Positions 1,163 to 33,808 of a stretch of DNA of 64,000 nt are shown in pieces. Each line of letters starts with the position of its first letter. The stretch's first letter is position 1. A program made the position numbers and the translations under genes. This DNA is from Candidatus Methylomirabilota bacterium. Lineage in GTDB: Bacteria; Methylomirabilota; Methylomirabilia; Rokubacteriales; CSP1-6. The DNA is taken from assembly GCA_036001065.1 (NCBI GenBank), contig DASYUQ010000077.1, positions 12,299-76,298 of the forward strand, in the 5' to 3' direction. Under the pieces are notes generated by a model that worked only from the letters and a program-made list of their open reading frames with translations, was not told the origin of the DNA and ran no database searches.

Positions 1163-3040
1163 CTATCCAAGGAAATACCGCCTCGGATCGAAGAGCCGGA
1201 TGAGCCGCAGCTCGTCCGGCGTCGGGGGATCGAAGCGCCGCAGGGCCGGGGCGACCTTCAGCTCCCAGCCGCACGCCTCCCGCGCAGCCCGGACGGCTTC
1301 CGCCTCGGGCGGCCCCGCCAGGACGCCCGTCAGGATCAGCTCGGAGCTCTCGTCGGGCTTCTCGTACACGCCCCGGTCCGACACGACGGTCGTGACGCGC
1401 GTGCCCGGCGCCGTGATGTACGGCGCCTTGTCGACGAAGCGCTCCCGGCTCTGGGCCAGCGTCACGACGACCTCCCGCGCCGACGAGGCGATGTCGTTGG
1501 CTCCGCCCGAGCCCGTGATGTACAGGGTCCCCGGCACGATGGTCGAGTTGATGTTGCCGTGCTTGTCGATCTGCCCCGCCGCCAGCGAGCCGAGGCAGCG
1601 GTTCTCGCTCCCGCCCATGAAGATGCCCATAACGTGGAAGATGTCGGTGAGCATCTTGGACGACGGGAAGTTGCGGAACGAGAAGACGAACGGCTCGGCC
1701 GGGCGCGGCAGATAGCCGACCATCCCCGTCTCGGCCATCAGCTCCACGTCGACGCCGGCGGCCTTCAGCTCGTAGGCGCTGAGCCAGGCGGCCAGGTTCG
1801 AGTTGCCCACGCCGGCCAGGAAGGCGCGATAGCCCCGCGCCCTCACCTTCTCGCCGAGCAGGCGCGCCGCGGCCACCACCATCATCTCCGCTGCGGTGAA
1901 GCCGCCGTCGGCGGGAATGGCGGGCGCGAGCATCTCCAGCTCCCAGACCCAGGCGTCGGTGTGGGCGCGGCCCTTGACCTCCATCAGCCGCTGGTAGCCC
2001 AGCCGGGCGACGTAGGCCCCCTGGTCCGGCACCTCCAGCATCCACTCCTTGATCCAGGCCTCCGCCGTCTCGCGCTTCCGGAAGGCGCGGCGCAGCGTGA
2101 GGATGAAGTCGAGGTCCTCCGCGTATCCCTCCAGCTCGGCGACGTTCATGCCGTACATCCCGGCGGGATGGGCCCCGAACGGCGCCTCCACCACGGCCGC
2201 GACGTACTGTCCCGGCAGTCGCACCAACGGGGCGTGGCGGCGGATGAACTCGGTCGAGACGACCTTCTCGACGCTGACGATGGCGCCCCCGCGGGCGGCC
2301 ATCGCCGCGTAGAAGTTCTCGTTGAGGGGCGCGGCGGCGAGGACGTTGCCGGCGCGGTCGGCGGCCCAGGCGTGAAACAGCGCCACATCCGGCTTGAGCG
2401 AGCGCACGAACCCGACCCTTCGAGCGCCGGCTCCGCCGGCACAACCCTCCGATGGGGAGGTTCGGAGGGGGTCGTGAGGCCCTCTCTGACTAGGGATCTC
2501 GGAGGGGGCCGTAACGTCCGCCCCCTCCGAAAAAAACGGGTCGGGGGCGGCGAGGAAATCGCCATCGCGCGCGTTGTCCTCCTCCATCGAGGAGCCGAGC
2601 AGCGAGCGCGTGGGCATGAAGGGCACGCCCAGCGCGCCCCCGATCAGCCTGAGCGGCATCGTCAGCATCGACCAGTTCTGGACGGCCACCTGGCCGCCGA
2701 GCACGGCGCGGCCGACCAGCGGCTGGGGCGTCGGATAAGGATAGCCCTCGCCGATGAAGGTCGTGACGAGGCGCTCGACGAGGCCGCCCACGACGAACGC
2801 CGTCCAGGGCGAGCCGAACCCGGTCATCGCCAGCGTCCAGCCCGGCCTCCGGCCCCACCACTGGCGGATCACCTCTCGCACCAGCGCGTTCGGGCGGCCG
2901 TGGGCGGCGCCCAGGTAGATGGTCTGGCGCGGCGCGATCAGGCGCCGCACCGCCTCCTCCAGGGTCGTCACCTTGTCCGGCCCTTCGGTGGGCGGCAGCG
3001 CGAGGCGTCGCCCGATCAGCTCCGCGTAGTCCGAGCGCAT
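1163..3040 (-). CDS. Family I CoA-transferase, fused alpha-like + beta-like subunits (GctAB/AtoDA-type), with an about 39-aa in-frame repeat-derived insertion
   Basis: 625-aa ORF. The C-terminal half carries the beta-subunit catalytic-glutamate motif (GGSENRCLGSLAAGQIDKHGNINSTIV). The N-terminal half resembles the alpha subunit. Residues about 168-207 (PFFSEGADVTAPSEIPSQRGPHDPLRTSPSEGCAGGAGARRVG) are encoded by repeat copy A. Confidence 0.65.
   Translation of the reverse strand: MRSDYAELIGRRLALPPTEGPDKVTTLEEAVRRLIAPRQTIYLGAAHGRPNALVREVIRQWWGRRPGWTLAMTGFGSPWTAFVVGGLVERLVTTFIGEGYPYPTPQPLVGRAVLGGQVAVQNWSMLTMPLRLIGGALGVPFMPTRSLLGSSMEEDNARDGDFLAAPDPFFSEGADVTAPSEIPSQRGPHDPLRTSPSEGCAGGAGARRVGFVRSLKPDVALFHAWAADRAGNVLAAAPLNENFYAAMAARGGAIVSVEKVVSTEFIRRHAPLVRLPGQYVAAVVEAPFGAHPAGMYGMNVAELEGYAEDLDFILTLRRAFRKRETAEAWIKEWMLEVPDQGAYVARLGYQRLMEVKGRAHTDAWVWELEMLAPAIPADGGFTAAEMMVVAAARLLGEKVRARGYRAFLAGVGNSNLAAWLSAYELKAAGVDVELMAETGMVGYLPRPAEPFVFSFRNFPSSKMLTDIFHVMGIFMGGSENRCLGSLAAGQIDKHGNINSTIVPGTLYITGSGGANDIASSAREVVVTLAQSRERFVDKAPYITAPGTRVTTVVSDRGVYEKPDESSELILTGVLAGPPEAEAVRAAREACGWELKVAPALRRFDPPTPDELRLIRLFDPRRYFLG
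2420..2537. repeat. GC-rich palindromic repeat element, copy A (forward orientation), inside the CoA-transferase CDS in-frame
   Basis: Sequence: ttcgagcgccggctccgccggc...gatggggaggttcggagggggtcgtgaggccctctctgactagggatctcggagggggccgtaacgtccgccccctccgaaaaaaa. It is near-identical to copy B (32414-32520) and shares 5' and 3' modules with copies C, D, E and F. Internal hairpins: GCCGGCtccGCCGGC and TTCGGAGGGGG...CCCCCTCCGAA. Confidence 0.65.
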
Positions 3041-3046
3041 CTTTCC

Positions 3047-3394
3047 CTAGCGTGGTGAGAAGATGCGGGCCTTGATCCGACCCGGCACCCAGCCGGCCAG
3101 CAGGTGGGCCGCCCGCGCCAGCCGCTCCAGCGACGCGGCGCTCCCCGGCCAGTACTTGAGCAGCAGGGCGCGGTCGACGTAGTTGAGGATCCCGTCGAGG
3201 ATGATCGCCGCCAGCAGGAGATCGTCGAGGTAGCCCAGGAACGGGATGAAGTCGGGGATCAGGTCGATGGGACTGGCCAGGTAGACCGCCGCGGCGGCCA
3301 GGGCGATCTTGGCCGGGCGCGGCAGTACCGGGTCGCCCACGAGCCGGGCGATCAGCCGTACGAGGTCGGGCAGCGCGCGCAGCAGCTCCTTCAC
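3047..3394 (-). CDS. DUF1232 (YkvA-like) small membrane protein
   Basis: 115 aa with the DUF1232 signature PIDLIPDFIPFLGYLDDLLL and hydrophobic segments. Its start ATG overlaps the upstream gene's stop (ATGA). Confidence 0.55.
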   Translation of the reverse strand: MKELLRALPDLVRLIARLVGDPVLPRPAKIALAAAAVYLASPIDLIPDFIPFLGYLDDLLLAAIILDGILNYVDRALLLKYWPGSAASLERLARAAHLLAGWVPGRIKARIFSPR

Positions 3395-5376
3395 TCCAGG
3401 CTCTCCGCCACCAGCTCGCTCACATCTTTGACTTGAAGTCGCTCCTCGGCCCCCTTGACCTTACGGCCCAGGTCGATCATCGCCAGGCAGAAGGGACAGG
3501 CGGTGCCCACCATGGTCGCCTCGGTCTCCAGGGCCTCCTCCACCCGGATGATGTTGACGCGCTTCCGGGACTTCACCTCCATCCACATGTGGCCCCCGCC
3601 CCCGCCGCAGCAGAGCCCGCGTTCGCGGTTGCGCGGCATCTCGATGACCCGGAGACCGGGAAGCGCGCGGGCCACGGCCCGGGGCGCCTCCATGATGCCG
3701 TTGTAGCGTCCGAGATAGCAGGAGTCGTGGAAGGCCAGCGTCGCGTCGAGGGCCTTTTTCGGCTTGATCCGGCCGGCGGCGAGCAGCTCGTTGATGACCA
3801 CCGAGTGGTGGACCACCTCGTAGGTGCCGCCGAACTGGGGGAACTCGTTCTTGATGGTGTTGAAGCAGTGGGGGCAGTGGGTGAGGACCTTCCGGAAGCG
3901 GTACCGGCCCAGCGCCTCGACGTTCTCCTGCTGCACGGTCTGGTACAGGTACTCCTCGCCCAGCCGGCGCGCGACCTCGCCGTGGCAGCGCTCCTCCGGC
4001 ATCACCGCGAAGGACACGCCGGCCGCTTTGAGGATCCTCACCACGGACCGCGCGATCGACTGGTTGCGCTTGTCGTAGGAGGCGGAGCAGCCGACCCAGT
4101 AGAGGTACTCGACCTCTTTGCCCGGCTCCATGAGCGGCACGTCGAGCCCGTGCGCCCAGGCCAGCCGCTCGCTGGCCGGCAGCCCCCAGGGGTTGCCCGC
4201 CCGCTGGATGTTCTGCAGCGATTGCGGCGCCGTCGACGGGAGAGCGCCCTCCGACAGCGCCAGATACCGGCGGAGGTCGATGATGGTGTCGACGATGTCG
4301 ATGAAGGCCGGGCACTCCTGCACGCAGGCCATGCAGGTCGTGCACGCCCACAGCTCCTCGGCCTTGATGAGTTGGCCGTGGATCGGTCCGGGCAGCTCGC
4401 CGTGCAGGTGCCGCTTGAGCTTCACGATGATCTGCTTGGGGGATAGCGCCGTGCCCGCCATGTAGGCGGGGCAGACCGCCTGACAGCGCCCGCACTCCAC
4501 GCACGCGTCGAAGTCTAGCCGTCGCTTCCACGAGAACTCCTCGAGCTTCGAGATGCCGAACGACTCGGCCTCCTCGATGTTCTCGATCTTGGGGATCTCG
4601 CCGCGGGGGCCGAGCTTCGAGAAGAAGATGTTCAGCGGCGTGGTCAGGAGGTGGACGAAGTAGGAGTAGGGGATGACGGCGACGAAGGCCAGGGAGATCG
4701 CCGCGTGGAACAGCCAGGTCCCCAGATGGAGCGCACGCAACGCGCCCTCCGACATCCCGGCCGCCAGCATCGTCCGCCCCAGCGCCCAGCCCACCGGCGA
4801 CCACGGCGCCCACGCCGGCTCGACGACGGCCAGGCGGCAGGCCTCCATGATGAAGCCCGTGAGGTTGATCACGAAGAGCAGGGCCAGCACGCCGGCGAAG
4901 CGCGCCGTGGGATCGAGGCGATCCGGGCGCGCGACGAAGCGCCGCCCCACCGCCATGCCGAGCCCGATGACGAAGAAGAGCCCGAAGAGGTCGAGCACCG
5001 TCTCGTAGAAGAGGTAGAACGGCCCCTGGAGCAGCTTCACGTCGAAGAGCGGCAGCGTGATGTCCCAGTCGATGGTGGCCAGCACGGTGCCCATGAAAAG
5101 GGCGAGGAAGCCCCAGAATATGATCGCGTGCATGACCCCCGGATAGGCCTGGGAGAGTGTGCGGGCCTGGCCGAGCGCGTGCACCAGCACGAGCTTGACG
5201 CGTTCGGGAACCCGGTCGAATCGGTCCTGGGGGCGGCCGGCGCGCCACAGCCGGACGCGCTGCCACATACCGTAGACGAAGACGGCGACGGCCGCGAGGG
5301 CGCCGGCGTAGAGCGCGATCTGAGCCCAGGCCGGAACATTCCAGAAGGTGTCGCGGAACGGAATCTGTCCGGTCAT
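3391..5376 (-). CDS. Membrane-anchored iron-sulfur oxidoreductase: NarI/DsrM-like polytopic N-terminal domain + two 4Fe-4S ferredoxin motifs + two CCG (HdrD/DsrK/GlpC-like) cysteine-rich domains
   Basis: True start is ATG at 5376 (MTGQIPFRDTFWN...), overlapping the meaB stop as ATGA. The track ORF 3391..5925 carries a spurious 183-aa Arg/Gly-rich N-terminal extension. About 5-6 predicted TM helices are followed by CVECGRCQAVCP and CTTCMACVQECP, then the CCG motifs WVGCSASYD and LCCGGGGGHMW...CPFC. The architecture matches DsrMK/HmeCD-type and the membrane FeS oxidoreductases (DUF224) that accompany EtfAB in syntrophs. Confidence 0.65.
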   Translation of the reverse strand: MTGQIPFRDTFWNVPAWAQIALYAGALAAVAVFVYGMWQRVRLWRAGRPQDRFDRVPERVKLVLVHALGQARTLSQAYPGVMHAIIFWGFLALFMGTVLATIDWDITLPLFDVKLLQGPFYLFYETVLDLFGLFFVIGLGMAVGRRFVARPDRLDPTARFAGVLALLFVINLTGFIMEACRLAVVEPAWAPWSPVGWALGRTMLAAGMSEGALRALHLGTWLFHAAISLAFVAVIPYSYFVHLLTTPLNIFFSKLGPRGEIPKIENIEEAESFGISKLEEFSWKRRLDFDACVECGRCQAVCPAYMAGTALSPKQIIVKLKRHLHGELPGPIHGQLIKAEELWACTTCMACVQECPAFIDIVDTIIDLRRYLALSEGALPSTAPQSLQNIQRAGNPWGLPASERLAWAHGLDVPLMEPGKEVEYLYWVGCSASYDKRNQSIARSVVRILKAAGVSFAVMPEERCHGEVARRLGEEYLYQTVQQENVEALGRYRFRKVLTHCPHCFNTIKNEFPQFGGTYEVVHHSVVINELLAAGRIKPKKALDATLAFHDSCYLGRYNGIMEAPRAVARALPGLRVIEMPRNRERGLCCGGGGGHMWMEVKSRKRVNIIRVEEALETEATMVGTACPFCLAMIDLGRKVKGAEERLQVKDVSELVAESLE

Positions 5377-6368
5377 GAGTGTCCCAACGATAGCACGGCG
5401 AGAACGACCTCCGCGGCGGCGTACGGGTCGAGCTGCCCGTCGGCGACCCGATCGAACGTCTGGGCCAGGTCGCCCGAGCGCAGCATCCGCTCCACGCTGT
5501 CCCTGAACTCCTCCACCAGGAGACTCTTGAACTCGTCGCGCCGCCGGGCCCGGCGCCGTTCGGCCAGCGCGCCCGCTCCCTCCAGAGCTGCGCGGTGGCC
5601 GACGACCGTGTCGAGCAGCTCGGCCATCCCGCCGTTGTTCTGGGCCTCCGTCGCCAGCACGGGGATCTCCCAGTCGACGTCGCGCGGCGCGGTGGGGCTG
5701 GTGGAGGCCAGGTGGGCGGCGAACTTCAGCTCCGCCATCAGGGCGGGGGCGCCGGTGCGGTCGGCCTTGTTGACGACGAAGACGTCGGCCGCCTCCATGA
5801 GGCCCGCCTTCATCGTCTGGATGGCGTCGCCCGACTCCGGCACCAGGATGACCACCGTCGTGTCGGCGAGCTTCATGATGTCGAGCTCGGTCTGGCCCAC
5901 GCCCACGGTCTCGATGAGGATCCACGGAAACCCGAACGCGGCCAGGAGCTTGATGACGTCGCCGGTGGCGCGGGCCAGCCCGCCGAAGGCGCCGCGCGTC
6001 GCCATGCTCCGGATGAAGACGCCGGGGTCGAGCGCGTGGGCCTGCATGCGGATGCGATCGCCCAGCACCGCGCCCCCCGTGAACGGACTCGACGGATCCA
6101 CGGCGACGACGCCGACGGTCTGCTCGCGCGCGCGGAGCAGCGCGGTCAGCCGGTCCACGACTGTCGATTTACCGGCGCCGGGTGGCCCCGTCACGCCCAC
6201 GACGTAGGCGCCCTGCGCCCGCGGATGGATCGCGCGCATGATGGCGGGCACCGCCTCCCTGCGGTTCTCGACGTGGGTGATGAGACGCGCCAGCGCCAGC
6301 CGGTCGCCGGCCAGCATGCGCTCGACGAGCGCGTCGATTTTCTGCGGGCGGGTCTTCGGATCAGGCAT
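5373..6368 (-). CDS. meaB: MeaB/ArgK-family G-protein (B12-dependent acyl-CoA mutase metallochaperone)
   Basis: 331 aa with P-loop GVTGPPGAGKST, VETVGVGQ and NKAD. This is typical MeaB. It is the first gene of a 5-gene minus-strand operon. Confidence 0.8.
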   Translation of the reverse strand: MPDPKTRPQKIDALVERMLAGDRLALARLITHVENRREAVPAIMRAIHPRAQGAYVVGVTGPPGAGKSTVVDRLTALLRAREQTVGVVAVDPSSPFTGGAVLGDRIRMQAHALDPGVFIRSMATRGAFGGLARATGDVIKLLAAFGFPWILIETVGVGQTELDIMKLADTTVVILVPESGDAIQTMKAGLMEAADVFVVNKADRTGAPALMAELKFAAHLASTSPTAPRDVDWEIPVLATEAQNNGGMAELLDTVVGHRAALEGAGALAERRRARRRDEFKSLLVEEFRDSVERMLRSGDLAQTFDRVADGQLDPYAAAEVVLAVLSLGHS

Positions 6369-11099: not shown

Positions 11100-11196
11100 A
11101 TTCCTCGGAGGGGGGCTTCGCCCCCCTTCCGAAACCTCCCCCCAGGATCCATTGCGCGGGCTAAGCCCGCGCTCGAGCCGGCCGCCCCCAGAAACT
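11100..11196. repeat. GC-rich palindromic repeat element, diverged copy F (reverse orientation), between convergent genes
   Basis: cggaggggggcttcgccccccttccgaaacctccccccaggatccattgcgcgggctaagcccgcgctcgag parallels copies D and E (cggagggggcctcggcggccccctccgaggcctcccccagga..gatggcgccggcggagccggcgctcgaa). The terminal hairpin is kept by compensatory changes (GCGCGGGCtaaGCCCGCGC versus GCGCCGGCggaGCCGGCGC). Confidence 0.5.
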
Positions 11197-18822: not shown

Positions 18823-18896
18823 TCGAAGGGGGCCTCGGCGGCCCCCTCCGAGGCCTCCCCCAGGATCGATGGCGCCGGCAAAGCCGACGCTCGAAC
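18823..18896. repeat. GC-rich palindromic repeat element, copy D (reverse orientation), immediately 5' of mobA
   Basis: cgaagggggcctcggcggccccctccgaggcctcccccaggatcgatggcgccggcaaagccgacgctcgaa is about 90% identical to copy E over about 70 bp. Confidence 0.6.
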
Positions 18897-18919
18897 GCTG
18901 GCCTCGCAACAGCGGGGCG

Positions 18920-21330: not shown

Positions 21331-22229
21331 TCGGGCGGGCCCCCTCCAGGCGGCTCCACGACTTCCAGGTGCGCGCGGGCGATGCGGGCCCACGGGCTAC
21401 CCGAGTCCAGCTCGAGGTACCGCTGCCAGTGCGCGACCGCTTCCGCGTTGCGGCCGGCCCGGGCGAGCGCCGCCGCCAGGTTGAAGTGAGCGTCGGCGTA
21501 GTCGGGCGACAGCTCGAGCGCGCGCCGGTAATGGACGATCGCCTGCTCGGCATCGCCGCAGTCCTCGTCGAGCGATCCCAGGTTGTAGGCGGCCTCGGCG
21601 CACCGGGGGTCCTGCTCCAGCGCGGCCGTGTACGCCGCCCGCGCCTCCTCGTATCGTCCCATCCGGTGCAGGAGGAGCCCGAGGTTGTTCCAGGCGGCGG
21701 CGTAGGTCGGATCGAGGGCCACCACGCGGCGATAGGCATCGATGGCGTCCTCCCAGTGCCCGGGATCGGCATCCCACTCGCTGGCCCGCTCGAACCAGGT
21801 CTCCGCCTGGGCGGCGGGCGGATACAGCGGCCGGACCAGCCCCGTGGCGAGGGTCGCCGCCGCGTCCTTGGTGAGGCCGCCGGCGTCGAGCGCGAGCACC
21901 GTCTGCCCGGTGCGGGGATCGAAGCGGACGCGCTCGGACTGAGCGAGGAGGCGATCGCCCTCGACGATGAAGCGCACCTCCGCCAGCGGGCTCTCCAGAT
22001 CGGGGTCCTGCTTCCGGAGCGCCAGCAGCGCCTCGCGGATCTGGCGTACCGATGCGCCCGCGTCCAGCAGCGCGGTGGCCGCCTTGAGCGCCAGGAGGTC
22101 GCGGAAGGTGTAGCCGGCGTCGCCGCGGAGCAGATCGAGCCGCCGGAGTTGGGCCAGCCGCCGGGGCGTGAGGCTCAGAATCCGGGTCAGATCCCGGAGC
22201 CCATAGATCCGTTCGGGACCCCGTGCCAT
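21327..22229 (-). CDS. MerR-like HTH + TPR-repeat protein embedded in the pur operon
   Basis: N-terminal IYGLRDLTRILSLTPRRLAQLRRLDLL (MerR-type HTH) followed by several TPR units (AAWNNLGLLLHRMGRYEEARAAY...). Its stop and start overlap purD and purH. Confidence 0.5.
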   Translation of the reverse strand: MARGPERIYGLRDLTRILSLTPRRLAQLRRLDLLRGDAGYTFRDLLALKAATALLDAGASVRQIREALLALRKQDPDLESPLAEVRFIVEGDRLLAQSERVRFDPRTGQTVLALDAGGLTKDAAATLATGLVRPLYPPAAQAETWFERASEWDADPGHWEDAIDAYRRVVALDPTYAAAWNNLGLLLHRMGRYEEARAAYTAALEQDPRCAEAAYNLGSLDEDCGDAEQAIVHYRRALELSPDYADAHFNLAAALARAGRNAEAVAHWQRYLELDSGSPWARIARAHLEVVEPPGGGPPE

Positions 22230-22234
22230 CGCGG

Positions 22235-23920
22235 TCAGTGGCGGAAGTGACGGATGCCGGTGAAGACCATCGCCACCCCGCGCTCGTCGGCCGCCGCGAT
22301 GACCTCCTGATCCCGGAGCGAGCCGCCCGGCTGGATGACGGCCGTGACCCCGGCCTGAGCCACGACGTCGAGACCGTCGCGGAACGGGAAGAACGCGTCG
22401 GAGGCGCAGACGCTGCCTTCGGTGCCGAGCCCGGCCTCGCGCGCCCGCATGACGGCCAGGCGCGCGGAGTCCAGGCGATTCATCTGCCCGGCCCCGACGC
22501 CGACCACCTGATCGCCTGTGGTCAGCACGATGGCGTTCGATTTGACGTGCTTGGCCACCCGCCAGGCGAAGCCGAGCGCGGCCATCTCGTCGGGAGTGGG
22601 CGCGCGCCGGGTGACCGTCTTGAGGGTCTTCTCATCGAGGTCGACCGCGTCCGCCGCCTGCACCAGCAGACCACCGAGCACGCTCCGGTACTCGACGAGC
22701 CGCGGGAGCCGTTCGCACGGTACCTGGAGCACACGGCACTTCTTCTTCGTCCGCCTGAGCTCCTCCAGCGCCTCGGGAACGAAGGCGGGCGCGAAGAGGA
22801 TCTCGACGAAGATGCCGGCGAGCTCCCGGACGACGGCCGGGTCGAAGGCGCGGTTGACGCCGACGATCCCGCCGTAGATCGATACCGGATCCGACGCTTT
22901 CGCCTTGGCCATGGCGGCGCCGGCGGTGGCGGCGACCGCGGCACCGCACGGGTTGGTGTGCTTGACGACGACGGCCGCCGGCTCGGCGAACTCGAGCAAC
23001 AGCCCCAGGGCCGCCGAGAGGTCGAGCAGATTGTTGTAACCGAGCTCGGGCCCGTGCAGCTGCCGCATGGCGCCGAGCCCGAAGGGGAACCCGCCGAGGA
23101 GGCGGTAGAACGCCGCCGCCTGGTGGGGGTTCTCGCCGTACCTCAGACCGAGCGCCCGCTCGGCCTCGAGCCGCAGCCGCTCCGGAAACTGCTCCGTTCG
23201 AGCGCCGGCTTCGCCGGCGCAATCCGTCCTGGGGGAGGTCTCGGAGGGGACCGTCGCGCCCTCCGGGCGCGCCTGTGGAGTCGCCCCCTCCGACCGGGAT
23301 GGGAGGCGAAGCCCCCCTCCGAGGGAGGCGGCCCCCTCCGAAGAAAAATGAGCGGCGATCGCCGCGTCGTATTCGGCCGTCCGCCGGAACGCTTGCTGGG
23401 CCAGACGAGCGCGCGTCTCGTCGCTAAGCGCGCCGCCGCTGGCCCGCAGCTCTCCCAGGACCTCCGCGTACTGCGAGGGATCGGTGACGACGGCCACGCT
23501 CGCGTGGTTCTTGGCGGCGGCGCGAATCATGGCCGGACCCCCGATGTCGATCTGCTCGATCGCCTCGGCGCGCGTGACGCCGGGCCGCGCCACCGTGGCC
23601 TCGAACGGGTAGAGCGCCACGACGACGAGGTCGATCGGCGGGATCCCGTGCTGCTCGAGCGCGGCCGCATGCTCGGGGGAGTCCCGGCGGGCCAGGATGC
23701 CTCCGTGAATCTTGGGATGGAGCGTCTTGACACGACCGTCGAGCATCTCGGGAAACCCGGTGACGTCGGCGACCTCGCGCACCGGCACCCCCGAGTCCCG
23801 GAGCAGCCGAGCCGTCCCGCCCGTCGAGAGGAGCTCCACCCCCAGCTCCCGGAGGGCTCTGGCCAGCTCGACCACACCGGTCTTGTCGTGAACGCTCACG
23901 AGCGCACGCCGGACCTTCAT
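22235..23920 (-). CDS. purH: Bifunctional AICAR transformylase / IMP cyclohydrolase, with repeat-derived about 50-aa insertion in the interdomain linker
   Basis: MGS-like N-domain (VRRALVSVHDKTG...) and AICARFT C-domain. The linker segment SSEGAASLGGGLRLPSRSEGATPQARPEGATVPSETSPRTDCAGEAGARTEQ is encoded by repeat copy C. Confidence 0.85.
   Translation of the reverse strand: MKVRRALVSVHDKTGVVELARALRELGVELLSTGGTARLLRDSGVPVREVADVTGFPEMLDGRVKTLHPKIHGGILARRDSPEHAAALEQHGIPPIDLVVVALYPFEATVARPGVTRAEAIEQIDIGGPAMIRAAAKNHASVAVVTDPSQYAEVLGELRASGGALSDETRARLAQQAFRRTAEYDAAIAAHFSSEGAASLGGGLRLPSRSEGATPQARPEGATVPSETSPRTDCAGEAGARTEQFPERLRLEAERALGLRYGENPHQAAAFYRLLGGFPFGLGAMRQLHGPELGYNNLLDLSAALGLLLEFAEPAAVVVKHTNPCGAAVAATAGAAMAKAKASDPVSIYGGIVGVNRAFDPAVVRELAGIFVEILFAPAFVPEALEELRRTKKKCRVLQVPCERLPRLVEYRSVLGGLLVQAADAVDLDEKTLKTVTRRAPTPDEMAALGFAWRVAKHVKSNAIVLTTGDQVVGVGAGQMNRLDSARLAVMRAREAGLGTEGSVCASDAFFPFRDGLDVVAQAGVTAVIQPGGSLRDQEVIAAADERGVAMVFTGIRHFRH
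23199..23349. repeat. GC-rich palindromic repeat element, long copy C (forward orientation), in-frame inside purH
   Basis: The 5' module ttcgagcgccggcttcgccggcgcaatccgtcctgggggaggtctcggagggga matches the reverse complement of copy E's 3' end (A and C share the core TTCGAGCGCCGGCTYCGCCGGC and GGGGAGG-YCGGAGGGG). The 3' module ggccccctccgaagaaaaa matches copies A and B. Confidence 0.6.
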
Positions 23921-23924
23921 TCGA

Positions 23925-24539
23925 TCACCATCCCACGATCACTCTCCTGCCGACGATCCTAAGCCGCCCTTCCGCGAAGAGCCGCACCGCCTGCGGATAG
24001 AGCCGGTGCTCCTCGGCGAGGATCCGTGCCGCCAGCGTCTCCTCGGTGTCGTCGGGCTGCACGGGGACGCTCGATTGTAAGATGATCGGGCCGGTGTCCA
24101 CGCCTTCGTCGACGAAGTGGACGGTGGCGCCCGAGATCTTCACGCCATGGTCGAGCGCCTGGCGCTGGGCGTTCAGCCCGGGGAAGGCCGGCAGCAGCGA
24201 GGGGTGGATGTTCATGATCCGCCCCGTCCACGCCCGGACGAACGCCGGTCCGAGGACACGCATGAAGCCGGCCAGGCAGACGAGCCCGACCTGATGCGCC
24301 TCGAGGACCTTGGTGATGGCGGCGTCGTAGGCCTCGCGGGCGCCGAAGTCCTTGGGGTTCAGGAGCACGGCCGGCACCCCCCGCTCGGCGGCGATCTTCA
24401 GCGCCCGGGCGCCCTCGCGATCGGAGACGACCACGGCGACCCGGGCCGGAAAGTCGGTGCGCGCGCTGGCGTCGAGGATCGCCTGGAGGTTCGAGCCGCG
24501 ACCGGAGGCGAGCACGCCGACCCGGAGAAGCTCCTTCAC
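23925..24539 (-). CDS. purN: Phosphoribosylglycinamide formyltransferase
   Basis: VGVLASGRGSNLQAIL...HPSLLPAFPG. Confidence 0.8.
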   Translation of the reverse strand: MKELLRVGVLASGRGSNLQAILDASARTDFPARVAVVVSDREGARALKIAAERGVPAVLLNPKDFGAREAYDAAITKVLEAHQVGLVCLAGFMRVLGPAFVRAWTGRIMNIHPSLLPAFPGLNAQRQALDHGVKISGATVHFVDEGVDTGPIILQSSVPVQPDDTEETLAARILAEEHRLYPQAVRLFAEGRLRIVGRRVIVGW

Positions 24540-26877: not shown

Positions 26878-26952
26878 AGTCGGAGGGGGCCTCGGCGGCC
26901 CCCTCCGAGGCCTCCCCCAGGAAGGGATGGCGCCGGCGGAGCCGGCGCTCGA
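26878..26952. repeat. GC-rich palindromic repeat element, copy E (reverse orientation), in the purF-purM intergenic spacer
   Basis: agtcggagggggcctcggcggccccctccgaggcctcccccaggaagggatggcgccggcggagccggcgctcgaa. Its 3' 22 nt are the exact reverse complement of copy A's 5' 22 nt (ttcgagcgccggctccgccggc). Confidence 0.6.
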
Positions 26953-27000
26953 AACAGCGAGCAGTGGCCGGAGTAAGCTGGCGCCATTCGCCAACAACCG

Positions 27001-32388: not shown

Positions 32389-32413
32389 CGCTCTACCCTC
32401 TATTTCGCGCTTT

Positions 32414-32520
32414 TCGAGCGGCGGCTTTGCCGCCGCGATCCTATGGGGTGGTTCGGAGGGGGCCGCGAGGCCCCCTCTGACTAGGGATCCCGGAGGGGGC
32501 GGCGCCCCCCTCCGACAAAA
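32414..32520. repeat. GC-rich palindromic repeat element, copy B (forward orientation), overlapping the purB 3' end
   Basis: ttcgagcggcggctttgccgccgcgatcctatggggtggttcggagggggccgcgaggccccctctgactagggatcccggagggggcggcgcccccctccgacaaaa. It is near-identical to copy A. The 5' hairpin has compensatory changes (GCGGCGGCtttGCCGCCGC versus GCCGGCtccGCCGGC). Confidence 0.65.
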
Positions 32521-33808
32521 GTCCGGCCCGCCTGAAGATCGCGTCGACATGACGGAGGTACCACGCCGGATCGAAGCACGCCTTCAGCTCGTCCGGCCCG
32601 ACTCGCTCGGTGATCGCCGGGTCGGCGGCGAGAAGCTCCAGGAATGACCGCCGCTCCCGCCAGGCCTGCATGGCGTTGCGCTGCACGATCTCGTAGGCCG
32701 CCTGGCGCGCCAGCCCCGTCTCGGTGAGCTTGAGCAGCACCCGCTGGGAGTAGACGAGGCCGTAGCTCCGCTCGAGGTTCTCCGCCATGCGAGCCGGGTC
32801 GACCTCGAGGCCCTCGACGACGAACGTCGTCAGATCGAGCAGGTAGTCGACGAGGATGGTCGAGTCCGGCAGGATGACGCGCTCGACGGAGGAGTGGCTG
32901 ATGTCGCGCTCGTGCCACAGCGCGACATTCTCGAGCGCGGCCAGCGCGTTGGTCCTGACGAGCCGCGCCAGCCCGCAGATGCGCTCGGTCAGCTCGGGGT
33001 TGCGCTTGTGGGGCATGGCGCTGGAGCCCTTCTGGCCCTCGGCGAAGGGCTCCTGGGCCTCCAGGATCTCCGTCCGCTGGAGGCCCCGGATCTCCAGGGC
33101 GATCTTCTCGAGGGAGGCGGCGGCGACGGCGAGCCCCGTAGAGAACTCCGCGTGGCGGTCGCGCTGGACGATCTGGGTGGAGACGGCCGCCGGCTCCAGG
33201 CCCAGCTCCCGGCAGACCTCCTCCTCGATCTCGGGCTCGACGTGGGCGAAGTTGCCGACGGCTCCCGACAGCTTGCCCACGGCGACGGCCGCCCGCGCCC
33301 GGCGGAGGCGCTCGAGGTTCCGCCCGGCCTCCGTGTACCACACCGCCACCTTCAGGCCGAACGTCGTCGGCTCGGCGTGAACGCCGTGAGTCCGGCCGAC
33401 GATTAGGGTGTCCTTGTGGCGGCGGGCCAGCTCGCCGAGTGCCGCGCGCAACCGCTCCTGGCCGGCGATGAGGAGGTCGGCGGCCTCGCGAAGCTGGAGG
33501 GCCAGCGCCGTGTCCCACACGTCGTTGGTGGTGAGCCCGATGTGGACGAAGCGGGAGTCCGCGCCCAGCTGCTCCTCGAGGCTGGTGAGGAGCGCGATCA
33601 TCTCGTGCTTGACCCGCCGCTGGATCTCGAGGATCCGGTCGACGTCGACGCGAGCCTTGGCCCGGACGCGGGCCAAGGCCTCGACCGGGATGCGGCCGCG
33701 GCGGGCATAGGCCTCGCACACGGCCAGCTCCACGCGCAGCCAGGTGGCGTACTTGGACTCCTCGCTCCAGATTCGCCCCATGGCCGGACGCGTGTACCGC
33801 TCGATCAC
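32441..33808 (-). CDS. purB: Adenylosuccinate lyase, with C-terminal about 25 aa and stop codon supplied by a repeat element
   Basis: Canonical PurB through ...WYLRHVDAIFRRAGL. It then reads LSEGGAAPSGIPSQRGPRGPLRTTP* from repeat copy B. The same repeat-encoded peptide frame is seen in the CoA-transferase (SEIPSQRGPHDPLRTSP). Confidence 0.85.
   Translation of the reverse strand: MIERYTRPAMGRIWSEESKYATWLRVELAVCEAYARRGRIPVEALARVRAKARVDVDRILEIQRRVKHEMIALLTSLEEQLGADSRFVHIGLTTNDVWDTALALQLREAADLLIAGQERLRAALGELARRHKDTLIVGRTHGVHAEPTTFGLKVAVWYTEAGRNLERLRRARAAVAVGKLSGAVGNFAHVEPEIEEEVCRELGLEPAAVSTQIVQRDRHAEFSTGLAVAAASLEKIALEIRGLQRTEILEAQEPFAEGQKGSSAMPHKRNPELTERICGLARLVRTNALAALENVALWHERDISHSSVERVILPDSTILVDYLLDLTTFVVEGLEVDPARMAENLERSYGLVYSQRVLLKLTETGLARQAAYEIVQRNAMQAWRERRSFLELLAADPAITERVGPDELKACFDPAWYLRHVDAIFRRAGLLSEGGAAPSGIPSQRGPRGPLRTTP

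Follow-up and report, generated by a model that had tools for sequence, protein, structure and literature searches.

For a long time, palindromic repeats lying in frame within bacterial proteins were portrayed as something peculiar to Rickettsia; they were later encountered sporadically for repetitive extragenic palindromes (REPs). Here we describe such a repeat, which we call copy A, inside the gene for a fused CoA-transferase in a 64-kb stretch of DNA (the window) from a Methylomirabilota metagenome-assembled genome (MAG). The closest described elements include RPE-1 to RPE-10, the palindromic elements of Rickettsia (RPEs; Ogata et al., 2000, Science 290:347; Ogata et al., 2002, Genome Res 12:808; both as recounted in PMC10969869 and PMC3733652), nearly half of whose copies in R. 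conorii lie in open reading frames (ORFs) (PMC10969869). The other close analogue, intragenic REPs of the GTAG and CGTC super-families, is described from Opitutus terrae, Thauera, Stenotrophomonas and others (Di Nocera et al., 2013, PMC3733652). Bacterial MITEs (transposable elements of the miniature inverted-repeat type) that fuse in frame with genes include ERIC, BOX, Correia/NEMIS and Nezha (reviewed in PMC10969869).

We conclude, with a probability of about 0.8, that copy A is a non-autonomous repeat that inserted in frame in the CoA-transferase gene and is translated as a tolerated loop. The insertion itself is genuine, and the case is RPE-like or intragenic-REP-like; its behaviour is that of the known systems, its sequence family is a different one, and its lineage and composition are new. 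As far as RPEs are portrayed in the two accounts cited above, the present family resembles them in being a short, palindromic, non-autonomous repeat that occurs intergenically and in frame within conserved, apparently functional genes, in supplying a peptide where the fold tolerates one, and in lying at protein termini as well. Set against RPE, the peptide of the present family is predicted to be disordered. The first contrast is that the same phenomenon now appears in a free-living, high-GC, uncultivated soil phylum, and in a very GC-rich family, rather than in an obligate intracellular alpha-proteobacterium. Further differences lie in the unit, of 74 nucleotides (nt) in the short form and about 118-150 nt in the composite form, in the share of sampled copies internal to genes (about 1%, among the matches listed), and in one and the same codon position having been struck more than once, with lineage, subfamily and orientation all varying. 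The parallel with RPEs drawn by an earlier, sequence-only reading of this DNA is apt as an analogy for in-frame insertion at a permissive position, but the family is overwhelmingly intergenic, unlike RPE-1. Sequence kinship with RPE appears unlikely, judging from the extreme GC content.

Like the GTAG/CGTC REPs (PMC3733652), the copies are mainly extragenic hairpin repeats beside the 3' ends of ORFs, where they sometimes provide a stop codon; occasionally they lie wholly within ORFs (REPs then add 20-80 residues), and their stems show compensatory variation. They also share with REPs and REPINs the build of 20-40-nt imperfect palindromes, mostly extragenic and near ORF ends. Unlike REPs, however, they have neither a GTAG nor a CGTC tag in 73 aligned copies, their ends being TCGGAGGGGG (TCGGAGG...) and ...GCGCTCGAA, and they combine two different hairpins in fixed order with a hypervariable spacer, whereas REPs are single or form inverted dimers. 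With MITEs the family has in common small size (70-300 bp), many copies, the absence of coding capacity of its own, strong secondary structure and occasional in-frame fusion, but it has no terminal inverted repeats of 15-30 bp and no evident target-site duplication. Beside RPE and REP, the family has a low intragenic fraction, and its recurrence at one site is conspicuous. We found no literature on repeats of this kind in Rokubacteria or Methylomirabilota.

The host gene and the parts of copy A are as follows, in positions of the window.

1163-3040, minus strand: host gene, encoding a 625-residue fused GctA-like/GctB-like family-I CoA-transferase
2419-2536, plus strand (the host coding strand is minus): copy A, long form, a 118-nt GC-rich and hairpin-rich sequence
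2424-2442, plus strand: H1 hairpin, GCGCCGGC-tcc-GCCGGCAC, 8-bp stem with one mismatch
2462-2489, plus strand: H2b hairpin, TCGGAGGGGG-tcgtga-GGCCCTCTCTGA, arms TCGGAGGGGG...CCCTCTCTGA, degenerate, with 3 mismatches relative to the canonical arm
2490-2498, plus strand: linker CTAGGGATC between H2b and H2a, which gives the sole alternative-frame stop (TAG) of the coding strand
2499-2530, plus strand: H2a hairpin, TCGGAGGGGGC-cgtaacgtcc-GCCCCCTCCGA, 11-bp stem
2531-2536, plus strand: A-run (a T-run in the mRNA), which encodes F169-F170, where empty orthologues have a single TTC Phe codon
2420-2533, minus strand: codons of F170-R207, the 38 element-encoded residues of the CoA-transferase

The host ORF reads straight through copy A, and its translation contains exactly the peptide PFFSEGADVTAPSEIPSQRGPHDPLRTSPSEGCAGGAGARRVG quoted in the sequence-only reading, which had placed the repeat at 2420-2537, within 1 nt of the boundaries given here. 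The same reading counted about 39 added residues; this is close to the 38 that the element encodes, but the net gain over an empty site is 34, the span between the anchors MEEDN and HAWAADRAGN being 81 residues in the host vs 47 in empty orthologues. The predicted peptides across the host/element junctions include DGDFLAAPDPFFSEGADVTAPSEIPSQR and TSPSEGCAGGAGAR. It had also been proposed that stops (cTGAcTAG) close the other two frames, so that only the frame in use is tolerated. This was mistaken: the motif was read on the plus strand, which is the non-coding one, and on the coding strand one alternative frame has a TAG and the third is open (RFFRRGRTLRPPPRSLVREGLTTPSEPPHRRVVPAEPALEG). Short-form copies, moreover, are mostly open in all six frames. 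Thus stops do not explain the frame used, and we rejected them as the factor enforcing it; one orthologue holds the element in the other orientation (L062, below), and PurH proteins read it in other frames. The frame used in the host gives a small, hydrophilic, acidic peptide (SEGAS.APSE.SP..AGEAGAR) and the alternative frames give Arg/Pro-rich ones; a selective filter acting on the encoded peptide would be plausible.

That copy A belongs to a repeat family is evident within the window itself. Its plus-strand order is TTCGA, H1, spacer, H2b, CTAGGGATC, H2a and the A-run AAAAAA, and over its whole length it aligns with a sister copy at 32408-32533 (85% column identity across about 125 nt). A profile built from short forms matched it at 2419-2488 (nhmmer, E=8e-7) and recovered exactly six copies in the window, the H1 motif TCGAGCGCCGGCnnnGCCGGCGC likewise occurring six times against 0.28 expected by chance. 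Three of the six copies are intergenic, one lies inside the CoA-transferase gene, one lies inside PurH and one forms the C-terminus of purB; the element is thus an interspersed palindromic repeat in both coding and intergenic DNA of one genome. The predicted folds of all copies in the window are far stabler than those of shuffled controls. No terminator or promoter was predicted by a scan around copy A.

The product of ORF 1163-3040 matches Pfam CoA_trans (PF01144, E=1.3e-26, two stretches within residues 25-286) and is identical to HEV8640722.1, 'CoA-transferase [Methylomirabilota bacterium]', from a Methylomirabilota MAG. By sequence, the A-like half resembles glutaconate-CoA-transferase A (1poi_A, E=6.5e-30) and the B-like half resembles 1poi_B (E=2.6e-12), and a Foldseek search with the AlphaFold model of the protein returned the SCOT, ASCT, YdiF and GctA structures at E values of about 1e-21. 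The alpha-like and beta-like CoA_trans domains, the fold and a conserved glutamate motif place the protein in family I, and E437 is inferred to be the catalytic Glu. In one JGI contig (P0245, in the cluster of P0001) this CoA-transferase is called as a gene of 414 residues starting at V212, just past the element; this may be an effect of the repeat on the gene caller or on the assembly.

We then compared the site in the 120 closest orthologues and in 46 loci of GTDB species in which the anchors could be found. Exactly 47 residues, the empty form, were present in 59 of the 120, with 24 more within two residues; among the GTDB loci, 40 had 47 residues and 2 had 48. The empty site reads DDPF-GxGE-RVG, a four-residue turn, and all eight distant homologues checked (38-54% identity; 38-45% for those from other phyla) have a short turn there, as does GctA (1poi_A; DNPF-KPGE-KVV). 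Since most orthologues and all eight distant homologues have the short turn, the insert is the derived state, and the segment is an indel between conserved residues, as the sequence-only reading had anticipated. Loci with an empty site gave no nhmmer copy, apart from an intergenic one in L016, and filled sites carry recognisable element DNA. Over about 824 kb from other Rokubacteria loci, the profile matched nothing but the CoA-transferase inserts and that one intergenic copy; element-poor genomes thus have empty sites, the reverse of the refuting case (an ancestral segment kept where there are no repeats) that the sequence-only reading had named.

The filled sites point to more than one event. 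Four loci (L059, L060, L061 and L063) have short-form or variant element DNA where the host copy has its codon position, oriented as that copy is, whereas the copy in L062, of the extended-H2 subfamily, is on the strand opposite to the gene and is read in another frame, as GRAPASPAQSVLGEVSEGAVAPAGRAREVAPSD. All orthologue inserts are in frame. Clean empty sites occur in L058 and many other loci, and remnants of 3-13 residues are found in further orthologues (YSEGANGRR, DPDEASRAGEAGARSGR, GGGEAGARAPR). In a neighbour-joining tree built without the insert columns, and lacking support values, the orthologues that bear an insert are spread over at least eight clades, all of which have sisters with an empty site. 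Because subfamilies and lengths differ and one copy is inverted, we conclude that the CoA-transferase site was filled more than once. At one codon position, then, a conserved enzyme offers empty, filled, inverted and decayed alleles as a series provided by nature, which makes it possible to test how the elements choose targets, how proteins tolerate inserts and how fast inserts decay. The orthologue of a long-read Rokubacteria MAG (L057:10403-10657, 54% identity) has an aberrant Arg-rich stretch near the site, DALAAGLHAWRRTTRGAGDFIDRRRSRSAAEG, for which either a frameshift in this region or a further insertion, read in some other frame, might account.

In an AlphaFold model of the host protein based on the 120-sequence alignment (mean predicted local distance difference test score [pLDDT] 77, predicted template modelling score 0.81), the insert occupies the tip of a beta-hairpin with strands 162-166 and 208-213. 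Residues 173-205, between the two strands, have pLDDT values below 50 and no secondary structure, so that the insert expands the hairpin turn into a loop. The model suggests that the insert is most likely a floppy, disordered loop of 38 residues; it may be the surface loop for which the sequence-only reading proposed to look. In the history that we propose, a long-form copy would have entered the coding sequence at the four-residue beta-hairpin turn of the GctA-like half; about 15 nt would have been swapped for 117 nt, and the net gain of 102 nt would have preserved the frame. The mRNA would be translated straight through the element into a Ser/Gly/Ala/Pro/Glu-rich, probably disordered surface loop of 38 residues. 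The enzyme probably still works, the loop being most likely a tolerated passenger and not an adaptation. The site is a recurrent target in related genomes, which may follow from its resemblance to the TTCGGAGGGGG end of the element.

Several points weigh against this history. An open frame of 38 codons is weak evidence in a GC-rich element of this kind, most frames of which are open, and the activity presumably retained by the enzyme is read from conservation. If alleles recombined or a copy was inverted in situ, there could have been fewer independent insertions; the inverted copy of L062 and the copy of L059 share one subfamily and sit on neighbouring branches. Finally, a target-site duplication, clear terminal inverted repeats and a transposase were all not found, so that no route of mobility is indicated.

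The alternative that survives best, though we regard it as improbable, is that the insertion inactivated the enzyme and that we are looking at a young pseudogene whose frame is open by chance. Stops are rare in GC-rich elements, about one insertion in three keeps the frame, and expression of the enzyme is inferred from sequence. Yet every position that is invariant across the 120 orthologues is preserved in the host, including A436-E437-G439, and the 417 codons 3' of the insert are intact. The insert is retained in three strain-level variants of the 625-residue protein from separate assemblies; elsewhere, diverged insert-bearing alleles persist in several lineages (e.g. P0002, P0003 and P0006), and other inserts have decayed to in-frame remnants instead of the gene being lost. 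The point of insertion is a hairpin turn predicted to be disordered. Moreover, the in-frame TAG of the sister copy (CCCCATAGGATC; CCCCA TAG GATC) is replaced in copy A (CCCCATCGGAGG; CCCCA TCG GAG G).

Somewhat less probable still is an adaptive loop, recruited as a flexible lid or as an interaction or regulatory site and for that reason filled repeatedly. The recurrent occupation of one site in many lineages would agree with this, as would the fact that one hydrophilic reading mode, SEGA...AGEAGAR, is favoured in all three of CoA-transferase, PurH and purB. However, sequence, length, subfamily and even orientation vary by lineage, many lineages have reduced the insert to 3-13 residues or lost it, and most orthologues are without it. 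Two of the five substitutions among the strain variants fall inside the 38-residue insert, a higher rate than in the rest of the protein; this pattern is what is expected for a weakly constrained loop in a constrained protein. The segment also has a low pLDDT.

Two further explanations seem very unlikely. Were the segment ancestral protein sequence, with the genomic repeats derived from it or resembling it by chance, similar peptides at the same place in several orthologues would be natural; but the segment is absent from most orthologues and from every distant homologue checked, the same DNA occurs intergenically and in the unrelated PurH and purB, the element is abundant in metagenomes with sharp ends, and in one orthologue it is inverted; the empty sites by themselves refute this reading. 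Equally remote is removal or bypass of the element, by RNA excision or by ribosome hopping over the hairpins, giving a mature protein without the loop. The 129-nt coding-strand RNA of copy A is predicted to fold at -68 kcal/mol (z = -3.5), and hairpins of such stability would suit this idea; but bypass requires neither an open frame nor a length that is a multiple of three, all orthologue inserts are in frame, purB uses the stop of the sister copy, and Rfam, introns and ribozymes included, gave zero matches across the whole 64-kb window. We dismiss a chimeric join induced by the repeat during assembly since, although the window is part of a MAG and short-read assemblers can be misled by 110-nt repeats, what lies on either side is one conserved gene, its two halves in frame with each other, the 625-residue protein is found, identical or near-identical, on at least five contigs of separate assemblies, and analogous inserts occur in many other assemblies.

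The junctions of copy A say little of how it arrived. Neither at the junctions in the CoA-transferase gene nor among 89 copies from metagenomes could a target-site duplication be seen; the flanks show AT enrichment over 8 nt upstream and a weak C-C/G-G-G-G bias downstream. Terminal inverted repeats of 15-30 bp are absent, the ends resembling one another over only 6-7 nt (TTCGGAG vs TTCGAG), and no transposase for the element, nor a link with a RAYT gene (IS200/IS605-like Y1 transposase) such as mobilises REPs, was identified in the 64 kb of the genome at hand, whose ORFs were not screened exhaustively. The empty CoA-transferase site (CCG TTC GGn GGn GGn GAG CGC) resembles the element end TTCGGAGGGGG: in a post hoc test, 23 of 43 loci had three or fewer mismatches to TTCGGAGGGGG, vs about 3% of random windows from the same genes. 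PurH and several metagenomic copies contain nested or adjacent partial copies. These resemblances hint at self-similar targeting or homology-assisted insertion. It is conceivable, although we hold it to be doubtful, that integration is sequence-directed, guided by homology or by a protein, and homes to TTCGGAGGGGG-like sites, so that the same codons (the CoA-transferase turn, the PurH linker) are recolonised in either orientation and by nesting. If so, REP-like DNA would, throughout a phylum, regularly furnish proteins of core metabolism with disordered loops and linkers that are lineage-specific.

The family at large was sampled by a metagenome scan for the core GCCCCCTCCGAKRCCTCCCCC, which gave at least 120 stretches (loci L066-L185); the counts below refer to the matches listed. 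In order, the unit comprises a lead rich in AT, an H2 hairpin or two of them (TCGGAGGGGGC...GCCCCCTCCGA), a spacer that varies, H1 (GCGCCGGC-GAA-GCCGGCGC) and TCGAA. Units are 72-150 nt long, multi-copy and without a transposase ORF. The short form is sharply bounded at 72-76 nt; 8 nt upstream of it are AT-enriched, the 10-20-nt spacer before H1 is hypervariable and both hairpins are nearly invariant. H1 measures 19 nt and H2 25-32 nt, and copies adjoin stop or start codons. Two pairs of the H1 stem show CG<->GC double changes that preserve the pairing, one pair in 21 and the other in 5 of 73 family members. In several loci (e.g. L074, L085, L109, L119 and L127) a second hairpin, AGGGGGGCTTTGCCCCCC-ATCYTCK, directly precedes the short form, and in others (L081, L091 and L094) partial copies stand immediately beside it; both arrangements suggest that insertions were nested or in tandem.

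In Methylomirabilota/Rokubacteria the family is common, and its normal place is between genes. Although 46 ORFs span a metagenomic copy with at least 80 codons on each side, Pfam domains lie on both sides of the element in one of 125 copies, in the PurH of L159. We rejected the 45 other ORFs as internal insertions after the Pfam check, as they are spurious or N-terminal over-extensions; five of them have domains only downstream of the element and are probably extended too far 5'. Internal insertions are thus rare, and permissive hot spots are where they cluster. Looking for further host proteins by way of the peptide had no power: a peptide search gave two tiny matches (with a 49-residue tandem consensus), and an exhaustive phmmer search with the 30-residue translation of the copy at 18823 gave one. 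The inserts matter for the annotation of Rokubacteria MAGs, where they alter the lengths of proteins, give rise to spurious ORFs and displace the starts and stops that are predicted.

The other five copies in the window are these.

32414-32527, plus strand: sister long-form copy between purB and purC, into which purB runs
23195-23345, plus strand: composite copy in PurH, in frame (ORF 22235-23920, minus strand; residues about 192-242)
26880-26953, plus strand: short-form copy of 74 nt (H2-spacer-H1) in the intergenic stretch that separates purF from purM
18823-18897, plus strand: short-form copy adjoining the start codon of a MobA-like gene (minus strand)
11103-11176, plus strand: short-form copy of the GGGGGGCTTCGCCCCCC / GCGCGGGC subfamily, downstream of a radical-SAM gene

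In purB (ORF 32441-33808, minus strand) the last 24 residues, SEGGAAPSGIPSQRGPRGPLRTTP, and the TAG stop are encoded by the element in the same SEGA... frame, Pfam ADSL_C ending at residue 428 of 455. The PurH copy sits in the linker between the MGS/IMPCH and AICARFT domains and adds about 50 residues. This linker is 24-69 residues long among the 120 closest PurH orthologues, more than 70 of which have element-derived peptides in several reading modes, including other frames (LGGGLRPPS, ARAKPALE); even the shortest linker looked at in DNA keeps half an H2 arm (CTCGGAGGGGGGCTTCGCCC, read as LGGGLRP). The PurH linker is a much richer hot spot than the CoA-transferase site. Between purF and purM, the element-free relative L064 has a gap of 10 nt. 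All six copies lie in window positions 1-33000, the pur-operon neighbourhood, and none was detected in 33000-64000.

At the MobA-like gene of the window the element ends exactly at the ATG and the protein begins ATGAAAATC (see also L065:7653-7749); in L064 (7380-7400), which has no element there, the gene begins ATGCGCGTG. The inverted CoA-transferase copy of L062 is followed by TTTGAAAATC. The A-rich end of the element, possibly with a start codon, may travel with the element. Very long antisense or off-frame ORFs that are spurious, as is typical of high-GC DNA, occur at 3391-5925, at 22223-23962 and at many other places in the window. ORF length alone is unreliable evidence here; a plus-strand ORF of 579 residues antisense to PurH, for instance, has no Pfam match.

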